This document shows, piece by piece, positions 25,245 to 35,364 of a stretch of DNA of 64,000 bases. The translations under genes were made by a program, and so were the position numbers. Under the pieces are notes generated by a model that was not told the DNA's origin, did not search any database, and saw only the letters and a program-made list of their open reading frames with translations. Where the stretch lies: positions 92,325-156,324 of the forward strand of contig JAGXBC010000003.1 of assembly GCA_018971305.1 (NCBI GenBank), given 5' to 3'. Numbering within the stretch: position 1 is the stretch's first letter; every line of letters begins with the position of its first letter. This DNA is from Patescibacteria group bacterium. GTDB lineage: Bacteria > Patescibacteriota > Minisyncoccia > UBA6257 > 2-01-FULL-56-20.

Positions 25245-27602
25245 ATGAAAAATCTTTTTAGAAACTTCGGTATACTTATGGCCGGGCTTTTGCTCATATT
25301 ACAGCCCTTTGTTGTTTTCGGACAGCTCGCTACGCCAACCATGGAGACGACGACCACAACCGCGACGGCTCCCGAACACACGAGCACCATGCCAACAACC
25401 GAACCGGCGCCAGACACAACCCCGCCCATCATCCTTTCAATTACTGCTATCTCGGTGGATCCCGGGCAAACGAACGTCGTTTGGACAACGGACAAGCTTT
25501 CTTACGGCTGGGTTGAATTCGGCCCGACCATCTCCTACGGCGCGCAAACCGCGCAAAGCGGGCCTTCGCTTGAACACATCGCGATGCTAACAGGCCTTGA
25601 TGTTGGCTCGGAATATCACTACCGCATCGTCGCGGTGGACGAAGCGGGCAACAAAACGTATTACGAGAGCCACACTTTTGTTACGGCAAGCGAACCAGTG
25701 TTTGTGGATGAAACGCCGCCTTCTATCACGAGCGTTGAAATTTTGGATACTTCAACTTCAAGCGCCACGTTTTCCATAGCAACGGACGAGCCGGCGATAA
25801 CAAAAATAGAATACGGCACGACGGAAAATTACGGTTCCTTCACTCCGTCGAGCAGTGAATTTGATATCGCGCATATTACAACTATCGCGAACCTTAAACC
25901 CGGAACGGTCTACCACTACCGCGTTATCGCCGAGGACGAAGCGGGGAACGCGACAGCTTCTTTTGACGACACTTTTACAACCGATTCGCTCCCGGTCGTT
26001 TCTCCGTCGGCAGAGCCCACTTCTTCCGAACCGCTCGCCATTATTCAGCCGGAAGCGGTGGTCATCGGCACTTCCACTGTAACTATCGCCTGGAGCACTA
26101 ACAAAGATGCCGACGGGCGCATCGATTACGGCGCTACAAACACGTATGGTTTGAATATCTCAACAACCACGCAAGCGCTTTCCCACCGCTTAACGCTCAA
26201 GGGGCTTTCTCCGGGAACGGCATATTTATATCAGATAACCGCCCGCACGGCATCGGGTGAAATCGTGAAAGTGGGGGAGCTTGAGTTCACAACCTTGCCG
26301 CAAGTGATCGCGCCCGCTGAAACCGGGCCGGTGCTTTCCGGAATCACGGCGCATTCTGTCGCCGCCTCAACGGCAACCATTTCCTGGAACACGGACACGC
26401 TCGCCGATTCCACGGTGCGCTACGGAACAACGACCGCCTACGAAGCGGGGGCGGCGCACGATGCCACGCTCAAAAATAGTCACGAAATTTTTCTCGCCAA
26501 TTTGATGTCGGCTACGACATATCATTTTGAAGTTATCTCAGCCGACGCCTTAAAAAACACCGCCATTTCCAAAGATTTTACATTCACCACGGCTTCGTCC
26601 GGAGTAACCTCGCCGCCGATAGCGAGCACGAGTACCGTTGCCACAAGTAGCGTCAAGGAGCCCGCGATTCCTCCGCAAAATGAAATCCAGACCGGTACGC
26701 CGAATCTAAAAGTTCCGGAGGCAGCCCGCCGCGCTATTTTGGCTACGGGCGCGAAGATTCCCGATCTCCCGTCAACTCCGAGAGTTTTAAAAACCGAGGG
26801 CTTGGACGGACAGGCCGCTTTCATCTGGAACACTGCAGGCGCGCCGAGTACATTCCAGGTAAGAGTCGTCCGCAACACGAGCAATTCTCCCGGGCACGAA
26901 AATGACGGCGTGGTTGTCTACGAAGGGCGAGCCGGCGCTTTTACGGACACGAATTTGAATAACGGCCAAACTTATCACTACGCGATTTACATAACAAGCA
27001 AATTCCGCGGCATCTCGGAGCCGCACAGAGTGGTCGTTACGCCAACTCTGGGAAACGACCAGGTTAGCTTGCAGGCGGTGTCGTCGGAAATCCAGCTTAC
27101 TCCAACGTTTACGTTTGAAAATGACCTCGGCCCTGGAGCACAGAGCCGCAAAGTGGCGCAACTTCAGCTTCTTCTTGCCGAAGACGCGAATATTTATCCG
27201 CAAGGCCTCATCACAAGCTACTTCGGAGCGCTAACGCAAAACGCTCTCAGGCGATTCCAAAAGCAAAATAATCTTCCTGCAACCGGTTTTGCCGATGCTC
27301 CGACTCGCGCCGCGCTTGAGGCGGAGTCAAGCAGGCCAGCGCTTATTCTGCAGTCGCCGTTCTCTCGCGAGCTTTCTTTGGACAGCGAAGGTTCGGATGT
27401 GGCCGCGCTCCAAATGTTTTTGCATGATGCCGGATATTATCCCGAAGCCTTGTTCACAGGATATTTCGGCCCGTTAACCCAGGCCGCGCTTGTAAAATTC
27501 CAGAGCGCGAACGCCATCCGGCCCGCGAGCGGATACTTCGGTCCCGTCAGCAAAAAACGCGTGCTCAATCTAATGCGGTTGCGGGGCGTGTCGTTGCCTT
27601 GA
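25245..27602 (+). CDS. secreted multi-FN3-domain protein with two C-terminal peptidoglycan-binding (PG_binding_1-like) repeats
   Basis: Signal peptide, a Thr/Pro linker, at least four repeats with YHYRVIAxDEAGN (FN3), and two LxxxGYYxGxxxGYFGxxTxxAL motifs. Confidence 0.65.
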   Translation: MKNLFRNFGILMAGLLLILQPFVVFGQLATPTMETTTTTATAPEHTSTMPTTEPAPDTTPPIILSITAISVDPGQTNVVWTTDKLSYGWVEFGPTISYGAQTAQSGPSLEHIAMLTGLDVGSEYHYRIVAVDEAGNKTYYESHTFVTASEPVFVDETPPSITSVEILDTSTSSATFSIATDEPAITKIEYGTTENYGSFTPSSSEFDIAHITTIANLKPGTVYHYRVIAEDEAGNATASFDDTFTTDSLPVVSPSAEPTSSEPLAIIQPEAVVIGTSTVTIAWSTNKDADGRIDYGATNTYGLNISTTTQALSHRLTLKGLSPGTAYLYQITARTASGEIVKVGELEFTTLPQVIAPAETGPVLSGITAHSVAASTATISWNTDTLADSTVRYGTTTAYEAGAAHDATLKNSHEIFLANLMSATTYHFEVISADALKNTAISKDFTFTTASSGVTSPPIASTSTVATSSVKEPAIPPQNEIQTGTPNLKVPEAARRAILATGAKIPDLPSTPRVLKTEGLDGQAAFIWNTAGAPSTFQVRVVRNTSNSPGHENDGVVVYEGRAGAFTDTNLNNGQTYHYAIYITSKFRGISEPHRVVVTPTLGNDQVSLQAVSSEIQLTPTFTFENDLGPGAQSRKVAQLQLLLAEDANIYPQGLITSYFGALTQNALRRFQKQNNLPATGFADAPTRAALEAESSRPALILQSPFSRELSLDSEGSDVAALQMFLHDAGYYPEALFTGYFGPLTQAALVKFQSANAIRPASGYFGPVSKKRVLNLMRLRGVSLP

Positions 27603-27690
27603 GTGAGCATAATGGTTGAATAGCGGAAAAAATTGGGAGGTATAAAAGATAAGTATTGTAACCAATAGAAAATAAGATATACTAAATCTT

Positions 27691-28344
27691 ATGAGTTTTA
27701 ATGACAAAAAGTTTTCGGAAATTATTAAGAAATTAATAAAATTTAAATCTAGTACCACCCGCATACCAATCAAAGATGTAAGCTGGGAAGAGCTAATTTG
27801 GGCAACACTCGTTTTTATTTATGGAGGCAGTAATGTTGAGTGGGATTCTCAGTCTCATGAAAAAAGCGTTGACGTGAAAGCAAATATTGATAACGTTGCT
27901 GTAAAAATATCTGCAAAAGGGGGAATTATAAAAAATGAATTATTAACTATTTCCTCTTATCGTTTAACCTCGTTTAATAAACTAAAAGACAGACTGAGTT
28001 TTATTAAGAATCAACACGAAAACTTTGATTTTTATTTGATTTGCGCCAGGAACGTCGATTCTAAAAAAGGAATAACCCATTATACGATTCTCAGAGTACC
28101 ACCTACAAAGTTTGCGCCACCATCCATATTACTTACGAGGAACTGGAAAAAAACTAAGGGTGGATACGAATTAAAAATTAACCCTGGTTTCAAGGTTAAA
28201 ATAGTGTCTAAGATGTCTAATCAGTTATGGTATTCAATCCCACTAGATTACTTTTCTAACGACGAAAAACTAACTAGCGTGTCCATACCTAATGATAAAT
28301 TAGGCGATGGATTAATCGAATTTTTAAAAAACAATACGGATTAA
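27691..28344 (+). CDS. candidate type II restriction endonuclease (assigned from context only)
   Basis: Very AT-rich 217-aa ORF convergent with, and 28 bp from, the methyltransferase gene. No family motif recognised. Confidence 0.3.
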   Translation: MSFNDKKFSEIIKKLIKFKSSTTRIPIKDVSWEELIWATLVFIYGGSNVEWDSQSHEKSVDVKANIDNVAVKISAKGGIIKNELLTISSYRLTSFNKLKDRLSFIKNQHENFDFYLICARNVDSKKGITHYTILRVPPTKFAPPSILLTRNWKKTKGGYELKINPGFKVKIVSKMSNQLWYSIPLDYFSNDEKLTSVSIPNDKLGDGLIEFLKNNTD

Positions 28345-28372
28345 GGACGAAGCATTATTGGTATTTTATTAA

Positions 28373-29890
28373 TTAAAACAATTTTGATACAGGCTTAGCG
28401 TTGCTTATCATTTTTTTTGCTATCTCTATGTAGTCGGGGTTAATTTCAAAACCTATATATGATTGTCCTAATTCCCTTGCCGCGGCGCATTCTGAGCCGC
28501 TACCCACGAATGGCACCAGAACCACAGCGTTTTTTGGGGGCATAGCCGATTTAATCAATTTTGCAGATAGTTCAAATGGTTTTTGTGTGGGATGTTTGAT
28601 TATCTCGTGACCATCGTGTTTTTTCAATTGTCGTGGCTCAAAAACACCATTACATTTTTTGCATAAAAACCACCTCTCAACCATTCCGGCTCCACCAGCT
28701 AGAGCGGGGATCTTTATTACGTCCCTTGGTAGTGCGCCACCCTCGTGTGCCTTATAAACTGTTTCTAATCCGCCCTTACTAAATCTACCAATAGTACCTT
28801 TTCTTACTTTTCCGGCAGCTCCATTTAAAAATCCTTCCGTATATGGTTCTCTAACCTCATCCTTATTAAAAATCGGTTTATTTTTCCAGGCACAAATAAT
28901 TGCCTCATGACTTCTCTGCCAGAAATTTAACGATGCAACATTTTTGTTTGTGTAGTGCCAAATTAGCCAGCGTTTATTTATAGGAATTTCAACGGAAAGG
29001 TGTGCCAGAATTTCACTAAAACCATAAATAAACATAGTTCCAGTTGGCTTCATTGCTCTAATGGATTCGTTAATCCATTCCTTACACCACGCGATATATT
29101 CGTTTATTTCTCGCTTATCAATGTTATTGCCAAAGTCCTTGCCGATATTATAAGGAGGATCGATAACGACAACATCGCAACTTTCATCCGGAAGTTTTTT
29201 AAGTTCGGCTATCGCATCTCCCAATATAATTTTATTAAGTGGTAGGGTTTTATTTCTTTTTATGATAGATGTCGTTATCTCTTCGGCCCGCAACCCCTCC
29301 TCATTTTGAATAACGTCAATAACAACACCCTGGATTTTAATATCCCTATCTTTTTTAATAATAATCGGCTCATAGGCGCTATTTGCCGGTTCTAATCTAA
29401 TTTGCCCCCGCTCCTTATAGAATTTTTTAAGAGTTGCTTCGTGGTTGTCAATTAAAGCAACCACGCGTTGGCCATTTTCGGCGACTCCCTGCTGTTTTAC
29501 CAACACAATATCACCATCTTTAATATTTTCATCAATCATACTGTTGCCGGACACTCGCAAAGCAAAAAACTCTCCAGAGCGAGGGAGCTTGTTTTGAGAG
29601 ATGGCAACAGCCTCTCTTTCTTCGATCGCCTCAATTGGTTGACCAGCGGCGATGGTGCCGAGTAGAGGGATTTGGATAAGTTTTTCGGTTTTAGAAACTT
29701 CAATGCCGCGTTGTTTATTCTGTTCTTTTCGTAAATAACCACCATCCTTAAGATTTTGCAGGTGTTCGTGGATTGTTCCAACTGAACGTTTAAAGTGTTT
29801 TGCAAGTTCTGGAATAGAAGGGGAGTAGCCGTGTTTTTTGGAATAAGTTTTTATAAAATCCAGGAGCCCCTTTTGCTTTTTAGTAATCAT
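28373..29890 (-). CDS. fusion protein: a complete LexA-like repressor (wHTH plus S24 autopeptidase) joined N-terminally to a beta-class N6A/N4C DNA methyltransferase
   Basis: Residues 1-200 align across full-length LexA (LLGTIAAGQPIEA hinge, catalytic Ser in VSGNSM, Lys in ATLKKF). Residues ~215-505 have MTase motif IV DPPYN, HPTQKP, and motif I FVGSGSE in the IV-then-I order. Confidence 0.8.
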   Translation of the reverse strand: MITKKQKGLLDFIKTYSKKHGYSPSIPELAKHFKRSVGTIHEHLQNLKDGGYLRKEQNKQRGIEVSKTEKLIQIPLLGTIAAGQPIEAIEEREAVAISQNKLPRSGEFFALRVSGNSMIDENIKDGDIVLVKQQGVAENGQRVVALIDNHEATLKKFYKERGQIRLEPANSAYEPIIIKKDRDIKIQGVVIDVIQNEEGLRAEEITTSIIKRNKTLPLNKIILGDAIAELKKLPDESCDVVVIDPPYNIGKDFGNNIDKREINEYIAWCKEWINESIRAMKPTGTMFIYGFSEILAHLSVEIPINKRWLIWHYTNKNVASLNFWQRSHEAIICAWKNKPIFNKDEVREPYTEGFLNGAAGKVRKGTIGRFSKGGLETVYKAHEGGALPRDVIKIPALAGGAGMVERWFLCKKCNGVFEPRQLKKHDGHEIIKHPTQKPFELSAKLIKSAMPPKNAVVLVPFVGSGSECAAARELGQSYIGFEINPDYIEIAKKMISNAKPVSKLF

Positions 29891-30010
29891 GATATTATTA
29901 TATCAATACCGACCCGAAAGAAAACCGAAAGTTATCCACAGCCCCAGTTTGATTCTAGGACCCGTATGTTCAAAAGGTCGAACAATTAACAATAAAACGA
30001 AAAATAGTTT

Positions 30011-30196
30011 ATGGATTTTAATAACGCTAAAAAACAATTCGCAGAGAACGCTGGTATTTTTGGTAATCCCAACACAGAACCAGAAAATTATAATTTCTAT
30101 AACGGGTTAACCAATCTCGCCAGCGGTTTAGAACAACTTGAGTATGAAATGGCGGAGATAAAAAGACTGCTCGTTATGATTGTAAACAGGAGATAG
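30011..30196 (+). CDS. small hypothetical protein
   Basis: 61-aa ORF in the AT-rich island. Confidence 0.2.
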   Translation: MDFNNAKKQFAENAGIFGNPNTEPENYNFYNGLTNLASGLEQLEYEMAEIKRLLVMIVNRR

Positions 30197-30212
30197 CGAG
30201 GCGGTTTTTTGG

Positions 30213-30932
30213 TTGACCCCCTCTTTTTTAGGAGTAAAATTTGTGCGAAAGATATTAATGACAAAAACAATATATCAAGTATTTACTGATGAGTCGGGGG
30301 CTTGGAATGAGAGGGTTAATAACAAAACCACGACCTACGTTAGATGCTGGGTTAAAATTCCTTTGGGCGATAAGGCGATCAGCCTTGAGACTATATTCAA
30401 TCCCAAAAGCACAACAAAGATCGCGACATTCTTTACGTTCAGCGATTTACTAGAGTTTCGCACACGAAAAATTATTGTGCGCGAGGAGATTAATAAAGAA
30501 ATTCAGAATGTTTTTTTGCGCCTGCAAGAGGTGGTTAAAGGCTATATGCACAAGCTACCAAAAGAAATCGAAGACGCTATTAATCGAGTCTTATTCTTAT
30601 ATATTTATGAACGGTGGGCATGGGAAGACGCGAAACAAAGAGGGGTGTTTGAAGACTGTGTCGAGATTTTTATACATAAACCTCAATTTACAAAAGCGGA
30701 TTACCAAGAGCTTTTTAGAATTTTAGATATTAACCAAGGAAAATATAGTTTTATAAAAGGAGATGGCCTTGCCGGAATAAAAATTGCAGATGGTCTTGCT
30801 AGAACATTACGACGCGTGCCCACCTCTGATTTTCAAAAAGAAGGACAACTTAGAAATTTGAAATTGGTTCTGCAGAAAAACACTATTGAATTAGGAAATA
30901 TAGTAAAGGGAATCGATAAGGTTTTTCTTTAA
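30213..30932 (+). CDS. DUF3800-like protein; likely start at M16 (30258)
   Basis: N-terminal IYQVFTDESG resembles the DUF3800 xDESG motif. Confidence 0.35.
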   Translation: MTPSFLGVKFVRKILMTKTIYQVFTDESGAWNERVNNKTTTYVRCWVKIPLGDKAISLETIFNPKSTTKIATFFTFSDLLEFRTRKIIVREEINKEIQNVFLRLQEVVKGYMHKLPKEIEDAINRVLFLYIYERWAWEDAKQRGVFEDCVEIFIHKPQFTKADYQELFRILDINQGKYSFIKGDGLAGIKIADGLARTLRRVPTSDFQKEGQLRNLKLVLQKNTIELGNIVKGIDKVFL

Positions 30933-31017
30933 TAGAAAACTTGAAAGTGATAAAACATGGAAAAGAAAATTTCGCGAGAAACTTCTTACATGATTTCCAG
31001 TATGAAGGTATAAATTT

Positions 31018-31206
31018 ATGGAAACAATAGTAAAAATTGTTATTGCAATTGGCGCATCATTTTTGCTTTGGAAGCCTTTTAAATGGCTTATTGGAGCAGC
31101 ATTTGAGAATGCAAAATCACGTATCGCTTCTTTGGTTGGAGGAATTGTTGTGGTTATTATCGTTGCCATCTTTATTGCATTAATCGGTTGGCTCTTGAAA
31201 TATTAG
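31018..31206 (+). CDS. small membrane protein
   Basis: Two hydrophobic helices. Confidence 0.25.
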   Translation: METIVKIVIAIGASFLLWKPFKWLIGAAFENAKSRIASLVGGIVVVIIVAIFIALIGWLLKY

Positions 31207-31253
31207 TTTTCAAAATCCCCCTAAAAAAAACGGCGGGTTTTATTTTATACCAT

Positions 31254-31568
31254 CTAATCCGTCCCAAATAGCGCCCAAAATTTTTTCCAACCGTTCAATT
31301 CTTTAATATTTTGTTTTTCAGTTTCCTTTTCGTCCACCGCTATAAAGAAAACATCTTTGACGAGCTCCTTGTCCCAACCGCGCTGCATGAGCCATTTGGA
31401 AAAATCGCAGAGGATTTCGGCGTGCGGTTCTATCTTGTCGTCCAAAAGAGTCCGCCATGGTAGTTCGTTGCGTTTATTTTTCCCCAGACGCGTATCAAAA
31501 TGAAACTCCAAAAGTTCATTGAACAATTCTTTCTTAAACCTTTCCCTTTCGTTCGCCTTATCGGACAT
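31254..31568 (-). CDS. hypothetical protein
   Basis: ORF with a hairpin at its 3' end. Confidence 0.3.
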   Translation of the reverse strand: MSDKANERERFKKELFNELLEFHFDTRLGKNKRNELPWRTLLDDKIEPHAEILCDFSKWLMQRGWDKELVKDVFFIAVDEKETEKQNIKELNGWKKFWALFGTD

Positions 31569-31658
31569 ATAAAAATTATAACTCCACCCCCGCCCCGCGA
31601 GAAGCGGGCTTTTTGACGACCCTTGACATACATAATGATATAAGCATATACTTATATT

Positions 31659-32724: not shown

Positions 32725-34008
32725 ATGTCATACAGAGAGTTTCTGCGGATACTTTGGAGGTCAGCGATTGTAGCATTGATTATCTATTTCATCTTTCTTT
32801 TGCTGCGAAACGCTGGCTCTTCCCACAGCACGATTAATCAGGATAGTCAGATATATTACTATGCCGACTTTCTTTTTGTGGACGACCCTCCGCCGTTGGA
32901 TGACAAACAGAGCGACAGTGAAAAAGAATTTCACTCGTTCGTTTTCTTCCTGAGAGACGTTAGCCAAAATGAGCACCCCTTGCACAGAATAGATTTCTTA
33001 AAAAACTTAACCGATGACTACCGTTCGGAGGTAAAAACATTTCAGGAAAAGACCGGAAACAATCCGGAGCTTATGTACACATTGCTCTTCGATAAATCGA
33101 AGATCATTGACCTTATTCTGCGAGAGGAAAAGGAAAGGGATAGAAGAATCGCATCTTTACGTCCCGCGCCGAGTTTGGTCTACGTATTCTTCTTTTTTCA
33201 GGTCATAAGTATCGGTTGGCTGATTCTATGGTGGGCCACTGTCGGAAGCTGGAATGTTTTCCGCTTTCCTTATCGAGCGTGGTGGTTCTACGTTTACTTG
33301 GCCTTCATGCTCCCGTGTTCACTTGCCTTGATAGCATCGGTCGCATGCGGCGAGCTTGTTTTCTTTGTTATCCACATGATAGAGGCCAAACGAGATAGAT
33401 TCCGCACTGGGCTTAAAAAGCTGGCAGTCCGTCTCAAAATTGTAAGAGAATACGACGATTTGTGCGCTAATATCAATAAAAATCGCGCCAAGCACAAGGA
33501 TGCCTGGATTAGTTCCTTTGGTAGTAAACGAATATCCGTCAAGATTACACAAGAGAACGTTGTTCTTGAAGAACTTGGCAGGAATCTTCGCGCCAGGGAA
33601 AAGGAATTGCAAACGATGCAGCGCGACTATTTTGCGAAGAGGGAATTTATCAAACGCCTAAAAAAAATTCCGAATATGACCGAGCGGCTGGCAGAGGAAT
33701 TTGACGAACTGTCCCGCAATCCATTAGTGAAAGCGCTTGAGGTGAAAGACGATTGCCTGGTGGTCTACACAGACGCTATTTTTGGGAGCAGGGGAACCGT
33801 TGGACCTTTCCGTATAGACATTTCACCTACCGAAAGCACAAAAAGGGTGTCCTTTGCGGCTAAGTGGTCGAGGAAACATCCCACCGGAGACGGAACAGAC
33901 GGTCCTTACTGTTTCGGTAATGCGAACGAATTGATTGATAAACTACTTGAAGAATATCGCATTGCCGAGGGAGTTGGCCTGATGTTGAAAGCATTCCAAT
34001 CCAATTAA
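32725..34008 (+). CDS. membrane-anchored coiled-coil protein with a C-terminal E2/UBC-like domain (candidate Ubl-conjugating enzyme)
   Basis: N-terminal TM helix, two or three further TM helices at ~140-215, a coiled coil at ~220-330, and a C-terminal ~100 aa with FRIDISPTESTKRVSF...HPTGDGTDGPYCFGNANELIDKLL that resembles the E2 HPN...C motif. Confidence 0.5.
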   Translation: MSYREFLRILWRSAIVALIIYFIFLLLRNAGSSHSTINQDSQIYYYADFLFVDDPPPLDDKQSDSEKEFHSFVFFLRDVSQNEHPLHRIDFLKNLTDDYRSEVKTFQEKTGNNPELMYTLLFDKSKIIDLILREEKERDRRIASLRPAPSLVYVFFFFQVISIGWLILWWATVGSWNVFRFPYRAWWFYVYLAFMLPCSLALIASVACGELVFFVIHMIEAKRDRFRTGLKKLAVRLKIVREYDDLCANINKNRAKHKDAWISSFGSKRISVKITQENVVLEELGRNLRAREKELQTMQRDYFAKREFIKRLKKIPNMTERLAEEFDELSRNPLVKALEVKDDCLVVYTDAIFGSRGTVGPFRIDISPTESTKRVSFAAKWSRKHPTGDGTDGPYCFGNANELIDKLLEEYRIAEGVGLMLKAFQSN

Positions 34009-34019
34009 AGGAGGATAAA

Positions 34020-34673
34020 ATGCATAAAAGAAATATCCCGCTGTGCCTACCATTAAAAACGTTGAGTCCGGAAGCGGCCTTGATATCCTATCCGAATGCA
34101 ATACGACTGCTACCCAAGCTTGTCTTGGCGAGTGATGTGTTCCGGCAACTTTCCTGCTATTACCGTTCGATACGATGCGAATTCCAACTGATGGGATTCG
34201 TGGAGCGCGAAGATGAGAACGTTTTTCGCGTGACAGAACTCGCAATCAATCCTCAATACGTGGGAATAACCCATGCCGATAACGACACGCTGATGTTTTC
34301 TGATTTTCTCCGAGAACTTGAGTTACGGGGAAAAGATATCGGCAATCTGCGTCTGCAGGCTCATTCACACGGTATGCTGGAATCGTATTTTTCCTGCAGA
34401 GACGTGGATACGATCTGTGATTCTTACGCTTGCGACTGGATGATCTCGATGGTGGGGAACATCCGGCTTGATTTGAAGGCGCGGCTAGATATATTCGAGC
34501 CCGTGCCGTTAAGCATTTCATTGCCAATATTCGTGGAGTCTTCTTTGTCGGAAATTAATGCCCCAGTTGTTTCCGTGGAAGAAAAGAGTGCCGAAGAAGC
34601 TGCATGGCTTATGCAGCTGCTGAAACAGATGAGGCCAGGTATGGAAGTAGCGGGGGAGGTGTTCCATGGCTGA
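34020..34673 (+). CDS. JAB/JAMM (MPN+) metalloprotease
   Basis: Exact JAMM motif HSHGMLESYFSCRD (HxHx7Sx2D) with an upstream Glu (CEFQLMGFVE). Strong RBS aaggagga. Confidence 0.7.
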   Translation: MHKRNIPLCLPLKTLSPEAALISYPNAIRLLPKLVLASDVFRQLSCYYRSIRCEFQLMGFVEREDENVFRVTELAINPQYVGITHADNDTLMFSDFLRELELRGKDIGNLRLQAHSHGMLESYFSCRDVDTICDSYACDWMISMVGNIRLDLKARLDIFEPVPLSISLPIFVESSLSEINAPVVSVEEKSAEEAAWLMQLLKQMRPGMEVAGEVFHG

Positions 34674-35364
34674 TTTTCTAAGACAGCTAGATATCATTGA
34701 TCCAAAGAAATTGGTATATCCCGTAACTTGTATCGGATTGGGCGGTATCGGAAGTTTTACGGCAGCAGCTCTTCGCAAGATCGGTTTCCAAAAATTCATT
34801 CTCTATGATGGTGATGTGGTGGAGGCCCATAACATACCTTCGCAAAATTTTCCGTGGGAAAGCGAGGGCTCAACCAAGGTTTCCGCGACAGAGAAAGTGT
34901 TGCGTGAATCACTGGACTCCGAAGTGGAGATTACCGCCTATGATCGCAGGTTTACCGAAAATGACCATCTTGAAGGAATTGTCGTTGCCGGTGTGGACAG
35001 TATGTCTTCACGGCAGGCAATCTGGAAAGCCGTGCAAAACAACCGAGCGCTTGTCCCGCTTTTCTTAGACGGCCGCATCGGGGTTGAGTGGGACGAAAAA
35101 GAGCGCAAGGTCAAAGGAGAATGGATAGAGGTTTTTAGTTTGAACCCTTCATCGTTTTCCGACATTGAGCTTTACGAGTCGCATCTTTTCCCCGAAGAAG
35201 AAGCCGCCGCTCTGCATTGTACTGCGCAGGCGGTGATCTACATCGGCTACTTCATTGCGGCGTTCATAAGCTCAAGCATTCGCAAGTGGGCTTGTGGCGA
35301 AGAGATTCATCGCTATTTGCTTTATGACGCTTTGACTTCTGACATAATCAGTGCTATAAAGTAA
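34666..35364 (+). CDS. E1-like ThiF/MoeB-family adenylyltransferase (Ubl-activating enzyme)
   Basis: Rossmann GLGGIGS, DGDVVEAHNIPSQNF, the D...R...DGRIG adenylation motifs, and a candidate catalytic Cys in LHCTAQ. The start overlaps the JAB stop by 8 bp. Confidence 0.8.
   Translation: MADFLRQLDIIDPKKLVYPVTCIGLGGIGSFTAAALRKIGFQKFILYDGDVVEAHNIPSQNFPWESEGSTKVSATEKVLRESLDSEVEITAYDRRFTENDHLEGIVVAGVDSMSSRQAIWKAVQNNRALVPLFLDGRIGVEWDEKERKVKGEWIEVFSLNPSSFSDIELYESHLFPEEEAAALHCTAQAVIYIGYFIAAFISSSIRKWACGEEIHRYLLYDALTSDIISAIK

Follow-up and report, generated by a model that had tools for sequence, protein, structure and literature searches.

A complete LexA joined to a DNA methyltransferase

We have analysed a stretch of 64,000 nucleotides (nt) from a Patescibacteria group bacterium (assembly GCA_018971305.1, contig JAGXBC010000003.1, positions 92,325 to 156,324 of the forward strand). 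This stretch is called the window here; it represents 64 kb of a genome of roughly 1 Mb, and all coordinates are window positions. The gene under study encodes a protein of 505 amino acids (aa), in which a LexA winged helix-turn-helix (wHTH) domain, a Peptidase S24 domain and a DNA methyltransferase follow one another within a single open reading frame (ORF) that starts with ATG. It is paired with a convergent restriction endonuclease gene as the modification (M) part of a restriction-modification (R-M) system. The gene and the parts of its product are located as follows.

28373..29890, minus strand: LexA-S24-methyltransferase fusion gene, M subunit of the R-M pair (from ORF, Pfam, NCBIfam and homologous clusters)
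29696..29890, minus strand: LexA wHTH domain, aa 1-65 (PF01726 and alignment to LexA structures)
29747-29785, minus strand: recognition helix, about aa 36-48, with the specificity residue E42 within the TIHEH motif
29642..29647, minus strand: codons of Ala82-Gly83, the predicted autocleavage site (LLGTIAA/GQP), aligned with A84-G85 of E. coli LexA
29318..29668, minus strand: Peptidase S24 catalytic and dimerisation domain, aa 75-191 (PF00717)
29540-29542, minus strand: codon of Ser117, which aligns with E. coli S119
29426-29428, minus strand: codon of Lys155, which aligns with E. coli K156
29243..29305, minus strand: variable linker between S24 and the methyltransferase, aa ~196-216, of low conservation and variable length
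28376..29242, minus strand: beta-class (DPPY) amino-methyltransferase domain, aa 217-505 (PF01555, PADLOC and structures)

An original prediction, made by a model from the letters of the sequence, had read the N-terminal part as a full-length LexA with wHTH, hinge and S24 Ser-Lys dyad, and the C-terminal ~290 aa as a beta-class methyltransferase. Both readings hold. For the LexA part, Pfam, NCBIfam and structure alignment agree: LexA_DNA_bind (PF01726) matches aa 2-62 (2e-11), Peptidase_S24 (PF00717) matches aa 75-191 (3e-32), and the lexA equivalog model TIGR00498 gives 175 bits against a cutoff of 111, with aa 2-196 covering model positions 4-201 of 203. The N-terminal 198 aa can be aligned over their full length with T. 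maritima LexA (3k2z, 1.8e-32) and with the E. coli LexA structures. The same prediction had proposed to abandon the LexA reading if the catalytic Ser or Lys were missing; S117 and K155 are both present and align with those of solved LexAs. According to the structure-based alignment, the nucleophile is Ser117 in GNSM and the general base is Lys155, the first of the two adjacent lysines in TLKKF. Overall, the wHTH domain, the S24 dyad and the Ala-Gly hinge site that mark a LexA at the sequence level are all found, and the protein departs from the norm of a stand-alone LexA of ~200 aa by its length of 505 aa, i.e., by the linker and the 290-aa methyltransferase.

In the methyltransferase part, N6_N4_Mtase (PF01555) matches aa 239-493 (5e-38) and the PADLOC model MTase_II gives 8e-49, while the closest structures are 8urk, M.MboIIA and M.RsrI. 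The motifs appear in the order DPPY (aa 244), HPTQKP (aa 433) and FVGSGS (aa 461), which is the beta-class order (motif IV, target-recognition domain, motif I). In addition, the target-recognition region contains C410-x2-C413 ... H425-x2-H428 (28607-28663, minus strand), invariant in 30 of 30 aligned relatives, which may serve to bind zinc. The whole 505-aa fusion was modelled with AlphaFold at a pLDDT (predicted local distance difference test) of 56, too low for the model to be of use.

A large and mobile family in Patescibacteria

Among 5.8 billion proteins searched, we have found more than 120 protein clusters with the identical three-domain layout (504-510 aa, 100% query coverage, 73-80% identity), which come from NCBI, JGI, ENA and Logan assemblies. 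In the databases these relatives are named either 'transcriptional repressor LexA' or 'site-specific DNA-methyltransferase (adenine-specific)'. The architecture had not been recognised as a characterised one in the original prediction, and we have likewise found no published characterisation: a LexA-methyltransferase fusion was not found described in the 8 million full-text papers searched, whose coverage did not include Sanchez-Osuna et al. 2017 on the Patescibacteria SOS response. However, the architecture is not rare, as the family comprises hundreds of clusters that spread across many Patescibacteria lineages. A scan with one genome per GTDB species gave 72 loci, nearly all of them in Patescibacteria metagenome-assembled genomes (MAGs), and the host lineages include Jorgensen-, Taylor-, Falkow-, Nomura-, Campbell-, Giovannoni-, Gribaldo-, Kuenen-, Lipton-, Dojka- and Staskawiczbacteria.

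The conservation along the protein is uneven. A82, G83, S117, K155, DPPY and FxGxG are kept in all 120 cluster representatives, and in a separate alignment A82-G83, S117 and K155 are also invariant in 32 of 32 diverse fusions. The mean identity of the 120 representatives to the window protein is 52% in the wHTH, 76% in the hinge, 78% in S24, 54% in the linker and 84% in the methyltransferase. For the linker, identity ranges from 19 to 71%, and its length varies among the aligned fusions.

The flanking genes change from locus to locus, yet the protein keeps 75-80% identity across deep lineages, which indicates that the cassette is horizontally mobile. Two fusions can be found together in the single contig L046 and in the MAG behind L065/L067. 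A phage origin was considered and rejected, since 2.9 million viral contigs contain merely two distant fusion-like matches. The viral-classified IMG/VR contigs L093 and L094 carry fusion-like genes at 40% and 54% identity.

The restriction partner

The gene next to the fusion and the island that holds both are located as follows.

27691..28344, plus strand: PD-(D/E)XK type II restriction endonuclease, the restriction (R) subunit, 217 aa, of an unannotated family (from its fold)
27603..31650, no strand: AT-rich island with R, M and several orphan ORFs (GC content 0.372 against 0.455 elsewhere)

That the fusion gene lies in an AT-rich, apparently acquired island and is convergent with a candidate endonuclease had been proposed before, and the GC contrast and the fold of the 217-aa ORF bear out both points. 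In this ORF the alpha/beta core is like that of restriction endonucleases, the catalytic residues are acidic ones and Lys, and R.ThaI is the nearest fold; no match was obtained in Pfam, NCBIfam or PADLOC. It belongs to a family of 88 unannotated proteins, with weak matches to RE ThaI in 3 of 29 members. Members of the family always adjoin a methyltransferase, which is either a LexA-S24-methyltransferase fusion overlapping by 9 nt (L082-L085) or, alternatively, an M.TaqI-like gamma-class enzyme with TaqI_C (L086, L088/L089).

In most relatives of the fusion, the convergent gene encodes a 229-231-aa protein of the RE_TaqI family (PF09573), again with a 9-nt overlap, and about half of the related cassettes have a gene for a 72-aa HTH_3 controller (C) protein upstream of R. 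A homologue of the C protein was not found in the 64-kb window. We have also considered the 217-aa ORF as a homologue of RE_TaqI, and rejected this: BLASTP returned nothing, the hhalign probability was 2%, Pfam gave no match, and the alignment with RE_TaqI-like proteins is confined to a putative D-X12-(S/Q)-x-K core. The window endonuclease is treated here as either non-homologous to the RE_TaqI family or diverged past recognition. Between the 3' ends of R and M, the window has a 28-nt AT-rich gap (28345-28372) instead of the 9-nt overlap of the relatives, and no terminator-like hairpin was seen within this gap.

The control region and its predicted operator

Upstream of the fusion gene, the following elements can be recognised.

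29914..29931, minus strand: predicted operator of the LexA module, a CTTTCGG-TTTT-CTTTCGG direct repeat of period 11 (from conservation and co-variation)
29897..29905, minus strand: extended -10 element TGATATAAT, read from the sequence, 7 nt before the ATG
29931..29940, minus strand: TGTGGATAAC, a perfect DnaA-box-like 9-mer (TTATCCACA on the opposite strand), which abuts the operator and recurs in relatives
29968..29983, no strand: palindrome GTTCGACCTTTTGAAC, outside the conserved control region, with one of the few local TCGA sites, at 29978

About 60 loci have an upstream grammar in common, in which an invariant TGTGGATAAC is followed within a few bases by a direct repeat of period 11 in or beside the promoter. 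The form seen in most relatives is TTGAyTTTCTAyTTTTnTTCTATTATAAT, where the repeat occupies the spacer between -35 and -10. In the window the order is TGTGGATAAC, CTTTCGG-N4-CTTTCGG directly upstream of the -10, TGATATAAT and ATG, and the TTCGG-type relatives L013, L031 and L085 share this arrangement. Because the -35 has no match, a generic promoter scan missed the window -10. As the -10 element is only 7 nt away from the ATG, the fusion mRNA is suggested to be leaderless or near-leaderless.

The original prediction had chosen a different candidate operator, the GTTC-N8-GAAC palindrome. This palindrome does exist, at 29968-29983 (one base off the 29967-29982 given there), but no counterpart is present upstream of the ~60 relatives, and GTTCGACCTTTTGAAC was dropped in favour of the direct repeat.

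The repeat co-varies with the recognition helix of the protein. The residue at the position of E42 is F or Y in all 46 loci with a TCTA-N7-TCTA core, E or Q in all 12 with TCGG-N7-TCGG, and K in both loci with TCAC. The partition is thus perfect over 60 loci, with a Fisher p of about 1e-12 when shared ancestry is ignored. The proteins of the E/Q group are merely 50-60% identical to one another within the LexA part, and the repeat type of the window is also found in the relatives with HEH or HQH helices (L013, L031, L082, L085, L172). In L046, the two fusions on one contig differ in both helix and operator type. From this co-variation and the position of the operator, we infer that the direct repeat is the binding site of the LexA module at its own promoter. 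The earlier suggestion that LexA acts as a controller protein of the R-M system is in this way strengthened, the relevant operator being the one that co-varies at the gene's own promoter across about 60 loci.

There is one copy of the perfect operator in the 64-kb window, namely that at the gene's own promoter, and searches of the window with 3 mismatches and with the core motif gave matches at chance level. The window contains no recA. Within the 175 fetched loci, exact TTCGG-N6-TTCGG is almost confined to LexA-type promoters, with one exception that is intragenic. The methylase-only homologues of L060 and L062 (302-315 aa) have neither box nor repeats upstream. A protease-less version of the design occurs in L061, where two tandem methyltransferase genes (L061:3889-5064 and L061:6150-7247) have a LexA-type wHTH and no S24, each with a TGTGGATAAC-type box and a GTTTAGG direct repeat of period 11. 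In L082 (6184-6260, minus strand), a second, inverted TTTCGG copy of the operator lies between the -10 and the ATG and is followed by GTGGGGATAA; the window has the single upstream copy.

In 675 kb of related loci, TGTGGATAAC occurs 64 times against ~5 expected overall, and 46 of these occurrences precede a fusion start by no more than 200 nt. It stands directly upstream of the operator at nearly every LexA-methyltransferase gene and is absent upstream of methylase-only genes. Its complement TTATCCACA is the perfect DnaA-box consensus, and such an element, in either orientation, also precedes the standalone LexA genes of L073 (at 1359-1367) and L172 (at about 1185-1195). Since TGTGGATAAC stays constant while the recognition helix varies, it is probably read by another factor, perhaps DnaA. 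A methylation-sensitive promoter was also considered and not adopted: TCGA is present in 12 of 51 fusion promoters against about 7 expected, at scattered positions, which is not convincing.

A clade of LexA modules tied to methyltransferases

An exhaustive phmmer search of 1.84 billion cluster representatives was carried out with aa 1-200 as the query. Down to ~48% identity, the closest relatives of the LexA module are nearly without exception long proteins (378-890 aa) in which the LexA part takes residues 1 to ~198, and it is only below ~48% identity that ordinary LexA proteins of ~200 aa predominate. All 46 long matches have LexA_DNA_bind and Peptidase_S24, with Ala-Gly, Ser and Lys invariant in 46 of 46, and the partner is a DNA methyltransferase in 45 of them (N6_N4 in 31, Eco57I/N6_Mtase in 7, Dam-like D12 in 5 and C5 in 2). 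The fused enzymes thus comprise the beta, gamma, alpha and C5 classes. As all methyltransferase classes are represented, the association of the LexA module is with R-M DNA methylation in general, rather than with one enzyme family.

Among the nearest standalone LexAs, that of L172 has the helix TIHQH, TTCGG-N6-TTCGG and a TTATCCACA box in the opposite orientation, that of L175 has TVHEH with GTTCGGG-N4-GTTCGGG, and those of L173 and L174 have an FKH helix with TCACC repeats. The use of the same promoter grammar by these proteins indicates that the module of the fusions derives from the LexA native to the lineage. At least some hosts have both kinds of protein, for in L073 a fusion is accompanied by a separate, standalone LexA whose helix differs and whose operator is palindromic.

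Target specificity

The fusion methyltransferase is probably an N6-adenine enzyme for TCGA. This assignment is based on the DPPY motif, the RE_TaqI partners of the relatives, the M.TaqI-like partners of the endonuclease family, a double methylase in L037, and the depletion of TCGA. Of all 4-mer palindromes in the window, TCGA shows the strongest depletion, with 89 sites observed against 215 expected (ratio 0.41). In the pooled loci L001-L064, which bear the cassette, 586 are observed against 1244 expected (ratio 0.47). The next most avoided palindromes, CTAG and GATC, stand at about 0.58, and all of the DNA compared bears the cassette. TaqI_C is a widespread specificity-domain fold, and the assignment falls short of proof.

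The double methylase (L037:6001-9390) is one ORF of 1129 aa that contains LexA, S24, a beta methyltransferase and an M.TaqI-like gamma methyltransferase (N6_Mtase, Eco57I, TaqI_C), presumably two methylases of the same specificity behind one LexA module.

A proposed mechanism and its alternatives

The account that we find the best overall, and rather probable, is that of a self-repressing methylase which is derepressed by RecA-stimulated self-cleavage after DNA damage. The fusion would be the modification subunit of a mobile type II R-M system, with the convergent 217-aa endonuclease as its partner. It would dimerise via S24 and bind CTTTCGG-N4-CTTTCGG abutting its own -10, and this binding would repress its synthesis and so fix the level of methylase. 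After damage, RecA filaments on single-stranded DNA would induce S24 to cut between Ala82 and Gly83, by which the DNA-binding domain is detached; the triggering damage would include double-strand breaks that the endonuclease of the same system makes where methylation is insufficient. R/M imbalance in type II systems does induce the SOS response. Cleavage would then lift repression, more methylase would be made, and protection would be restored. Because R and M are convergent without a terminator between them, stronger transcription of M may also dampen the expression of R. The outcome would be a damage-triggered feedback, i.e., a type II counterpart of restriction alleviation.

Autoregulation through the LexA module is well supported, and we infer that it takes the form of repression. 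RecA-dependent cleavage, the fate of the fragments and the direction of the effect on methylation are predictions of the model. The N-terminal fragment to be released would end in ...IAA, which we take to resemble the E. coli LexA fragment that is recognised by ClpXP.

Several points weigh against this account. DNA binding, cleavage and methylation are all predicted from sequence, and the TCGA specificity is guilt by association together with site depletion, which is not proof. The search for operators spans 64 kb of a genome of roughly 1 Mb. If the S24-methyltransferase fragment were degraded, damage could lower methylation instead of raising it. The existence of HTH-only (L061) and methylase-only (L060, L062) versions means that the R-M system can do without the protease domain. 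Finally, the direct-repeat box type is shared with the nearest standalone LexAs (L172, L175), and thus there may be cross-talk between the host LexA and the fusion, and the fusion promoter could be no more than an ordinary promoter under SOS regulation.

One alternative is that the LexA module serves as a dimerising autorepressor or timer upon entry into a new host, comparable to M.SsoII and M.EcoRII, with a cleavage that has no physiological role. Autorepression by methyltransferases with an N-terminal HTH is established, the S24-less versions of L061 share the box-plus-repeat promoter, and many cassettes carry a classical C protein that times R. However, Ala-Gly, Ser and Lys are invariant in 120 of 120 representatives and in 46 of 46 long matches, while the wHTH and the linker fall to ~50% identity. 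Such invariance in A82, G83, S117 and K155 beside a wHTH at 52% is not expected of a domain that serves dimerisation only, and it is hard to explain without selection for cleavage. We consider this alternative unlikely.

It has also been considered that cleavage destabilises or mislocalises the methyltransferase, so that methylation falls while the endonuclease persists, leading to self-restriction and death by the logic of abortive infection or addiction. The intact cleavage machinery fits such a course, and so does the degradation of E. coli LexA cleavage fragments by cellular proteases. For EcoRII, selection for unstable M proteins that strengthen post-segregational killing has been discussed (PMC3874152). 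On the other hand, cleavage removes the DNA-binding domain of the repressor, so the transcription of M should rise. Moreover, the whole S24 domain and the linker lie between the cleavage site and the methyltransferase, there is no sign that the wHTH is needed for activity, and methylase-only homologues of 302-315 aa exist (L060, L062). This course of events seems rather unlikely to us.

We regard it as quite improbable that the fusion is the genuine and sole LexA of the organism, with a normal SOS regulon, and that the methyltransferase is a passenger or a means of SOS-linked methylation. It is true that the protein scores above the TIGR00498 equivalog cutoff and bears the NCBI name 'transcriptional repressor LexA', that no other lexA is found within the 64-kb window, and that the nearest standalone LexAs share the direct-repeat box type and the upstream TTATCCACA. 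But the one operator copy of the 64-kb window belongs to the promoter of the gene itself. The gene travels as a mobile cassette that keeps 75-80% identity in different neighbourhoods across lineages, L073 has a separate standalone LexA with its own helix and palindromic operator, and two fusions coexist both in L046 and in the MAG behind L065/L067. The module is also fused to unrelated methyltransferases, and the helix type of the window is seen in 1 of the 120 representatives.

Lastly, the possibility raised in the original prediction that the fusion is an assembly or frameshift artefact of two adjacent genes retains practically no probability, because, although split or shortened versions do occur in a few loci (L056, L065, L075, L078), the uninterrupted protein is encoded in more than 120 clusters from independent assemblies and in at least 60 GTDB species representatives.

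Taking the self-repressing, damage-released methylase together with the family-wide observations, a broader reading can be put forward tentatively, as a possibility that we would not yet call probable. In this reading, Patescibacteria would have turned a LexA clade into a portable controller that cleaves itself and is attached to R-M methyltransferases of every class, where it would act as a damage sensor that raises protective methylation. One residue of the helix would set the core of the operator (F/Y for TCTA, E/Q for TCGG, K for TCAC) and so avoid cross-talk between co-resident systems, and the DnaA-box-like element may add a replication-linked input.

Comparison with known systems

Self-repressing methyltransferases with an N-terminal HTH are known from M.SsoII/M.Ecl18kI, M.EcoRII, M.MspI and M.ScrFI, in which the operator overlaps the enzyme's own promoter (PMC3874152). 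The fusion resembles them in having a DNA-binding domain N-terminal to an R-M methyltransferase, and the position and co-variation of its operator indicate the same logic. However, the known cases have a short HTH without a protease, whereas the fusion has a complete LexA with a cleavable hinge and a Ser-Lys autopeptidase; its wHTH is of LexA type and not of Cro/C1 type, and its operator is a direct repeat with an 11-nt period and not a palindrome. In addition, the LexA module occurs with enzymes of the beta, gamma, alpha and C5 classes rather than with one family, and it adds a potential DNA-damage input which is absent from the known systems.

With the canonical LexA (TIGR00498; 1JHH, 3JSO, 3K2Z), the fusion shares the domain order, the hinge, the Ala-Gly site, the dyad and the length of the LexA part. 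It differs in being joined to a 290-aa enzyme, in travelling with a restriction gene, and in that the sole operator found is its own. Its clade consists nearly entirely of methyltransferase fusions and is at most ~50% identical to standalone LexAs. Direct repeats as LexA sites have precedents: the LexA of Alphaproteobacteria uses period-11 direct repeats, GTTC-N7-GTTC, and a direct-repeat LexA motif has been reported for Patescibacteria according to the papers that cite this finding.

R-M systems with C proteins are similar in having a dedicated regulator with a system-specific operator, and the diversified specificities in L046 resemble the specificity groups of C proteins. In contrast, C proteins are small separate HTH_3 proteins and usually activators of R, and the window is without one; many relatives of the fusion combine the two, with a C protein for R and a LexA fusion for M. 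As for the TaqI system, fusion relatives pair with RE_TaqI-family endonucleases (PF09573), and the family of the window endonuclease pairs with M.TaqI-like enzymes; but the fusion methylase is of the beta class while M.TaqI is of the gamma class, and the window endonuclease has no detectable homology to RE_TaqI, its closest fold being R.ThaI.

The likeness to type I restriction alleviation concerns the proposed outcome, in which damage lowers the risk of self-restriction. Type I alleviation is post-translational and works by proteolysis of the R subunit, whereas the route proposed for the fusion would be transcriptional derepression of M through LexA self-cleavage.

How R-M systems spare their own host is a long-standing question, above all after DNA damage, during repair synthesis and upon transfer to a new cell, and we know of no damage-responsive control in type II R-M systems. 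A methyltransferase with an intact SOS sensor would link self-inflicted breaks to protective methylation within one polypeptide, and such a fusion has arisen anew with each class of methyltransferase. Almost the whole of this large family is in Patescibacteria, a little-studied group in which regulatory mechanisms are almost unknown. From the ~60 natural pairs of operator and helix, one could derive a code by which LexA recognises direct repeats. It should also be mentioned that the labels 'LexA' and 'adenine methyltransferase' would mislead surveys of SOS regulons and of R-M systems alike.

Other genes in and around the island

Neither a tRNA nor an obvious integrase was found at the borders of the island. 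Beside R and M, it contains ORFs of 61, 239, 62 and 104 aa (30011-31568), which have no Pfam or PADLOC match and no homologue in the 175 fetched loci. These four small ORFs do not travel with the R-M cassette.

Directly upstream of the island, at 25245-27602 on the plus strand, there is a gene for a 785-aa protein with repeated Fn3 or purple-acid-phosphatase-N-like domains and two C-terminal peptidoglycan-binding domains. This region is locally GC-rich (0.51-0.55), in sharp contrast with the island. On the other side, three co-directional genes are located at 32725-35364 (plus strand): ORFs of 427 aa and 217 aa without a family match are followed by a 232-aa ThiF-family protein, for which PADLOC gives weak 'E1-E2' matches (best 3e-10). 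Next to the R-M island, these genes may form a module for ubiquitin-like conjugation or for defence.

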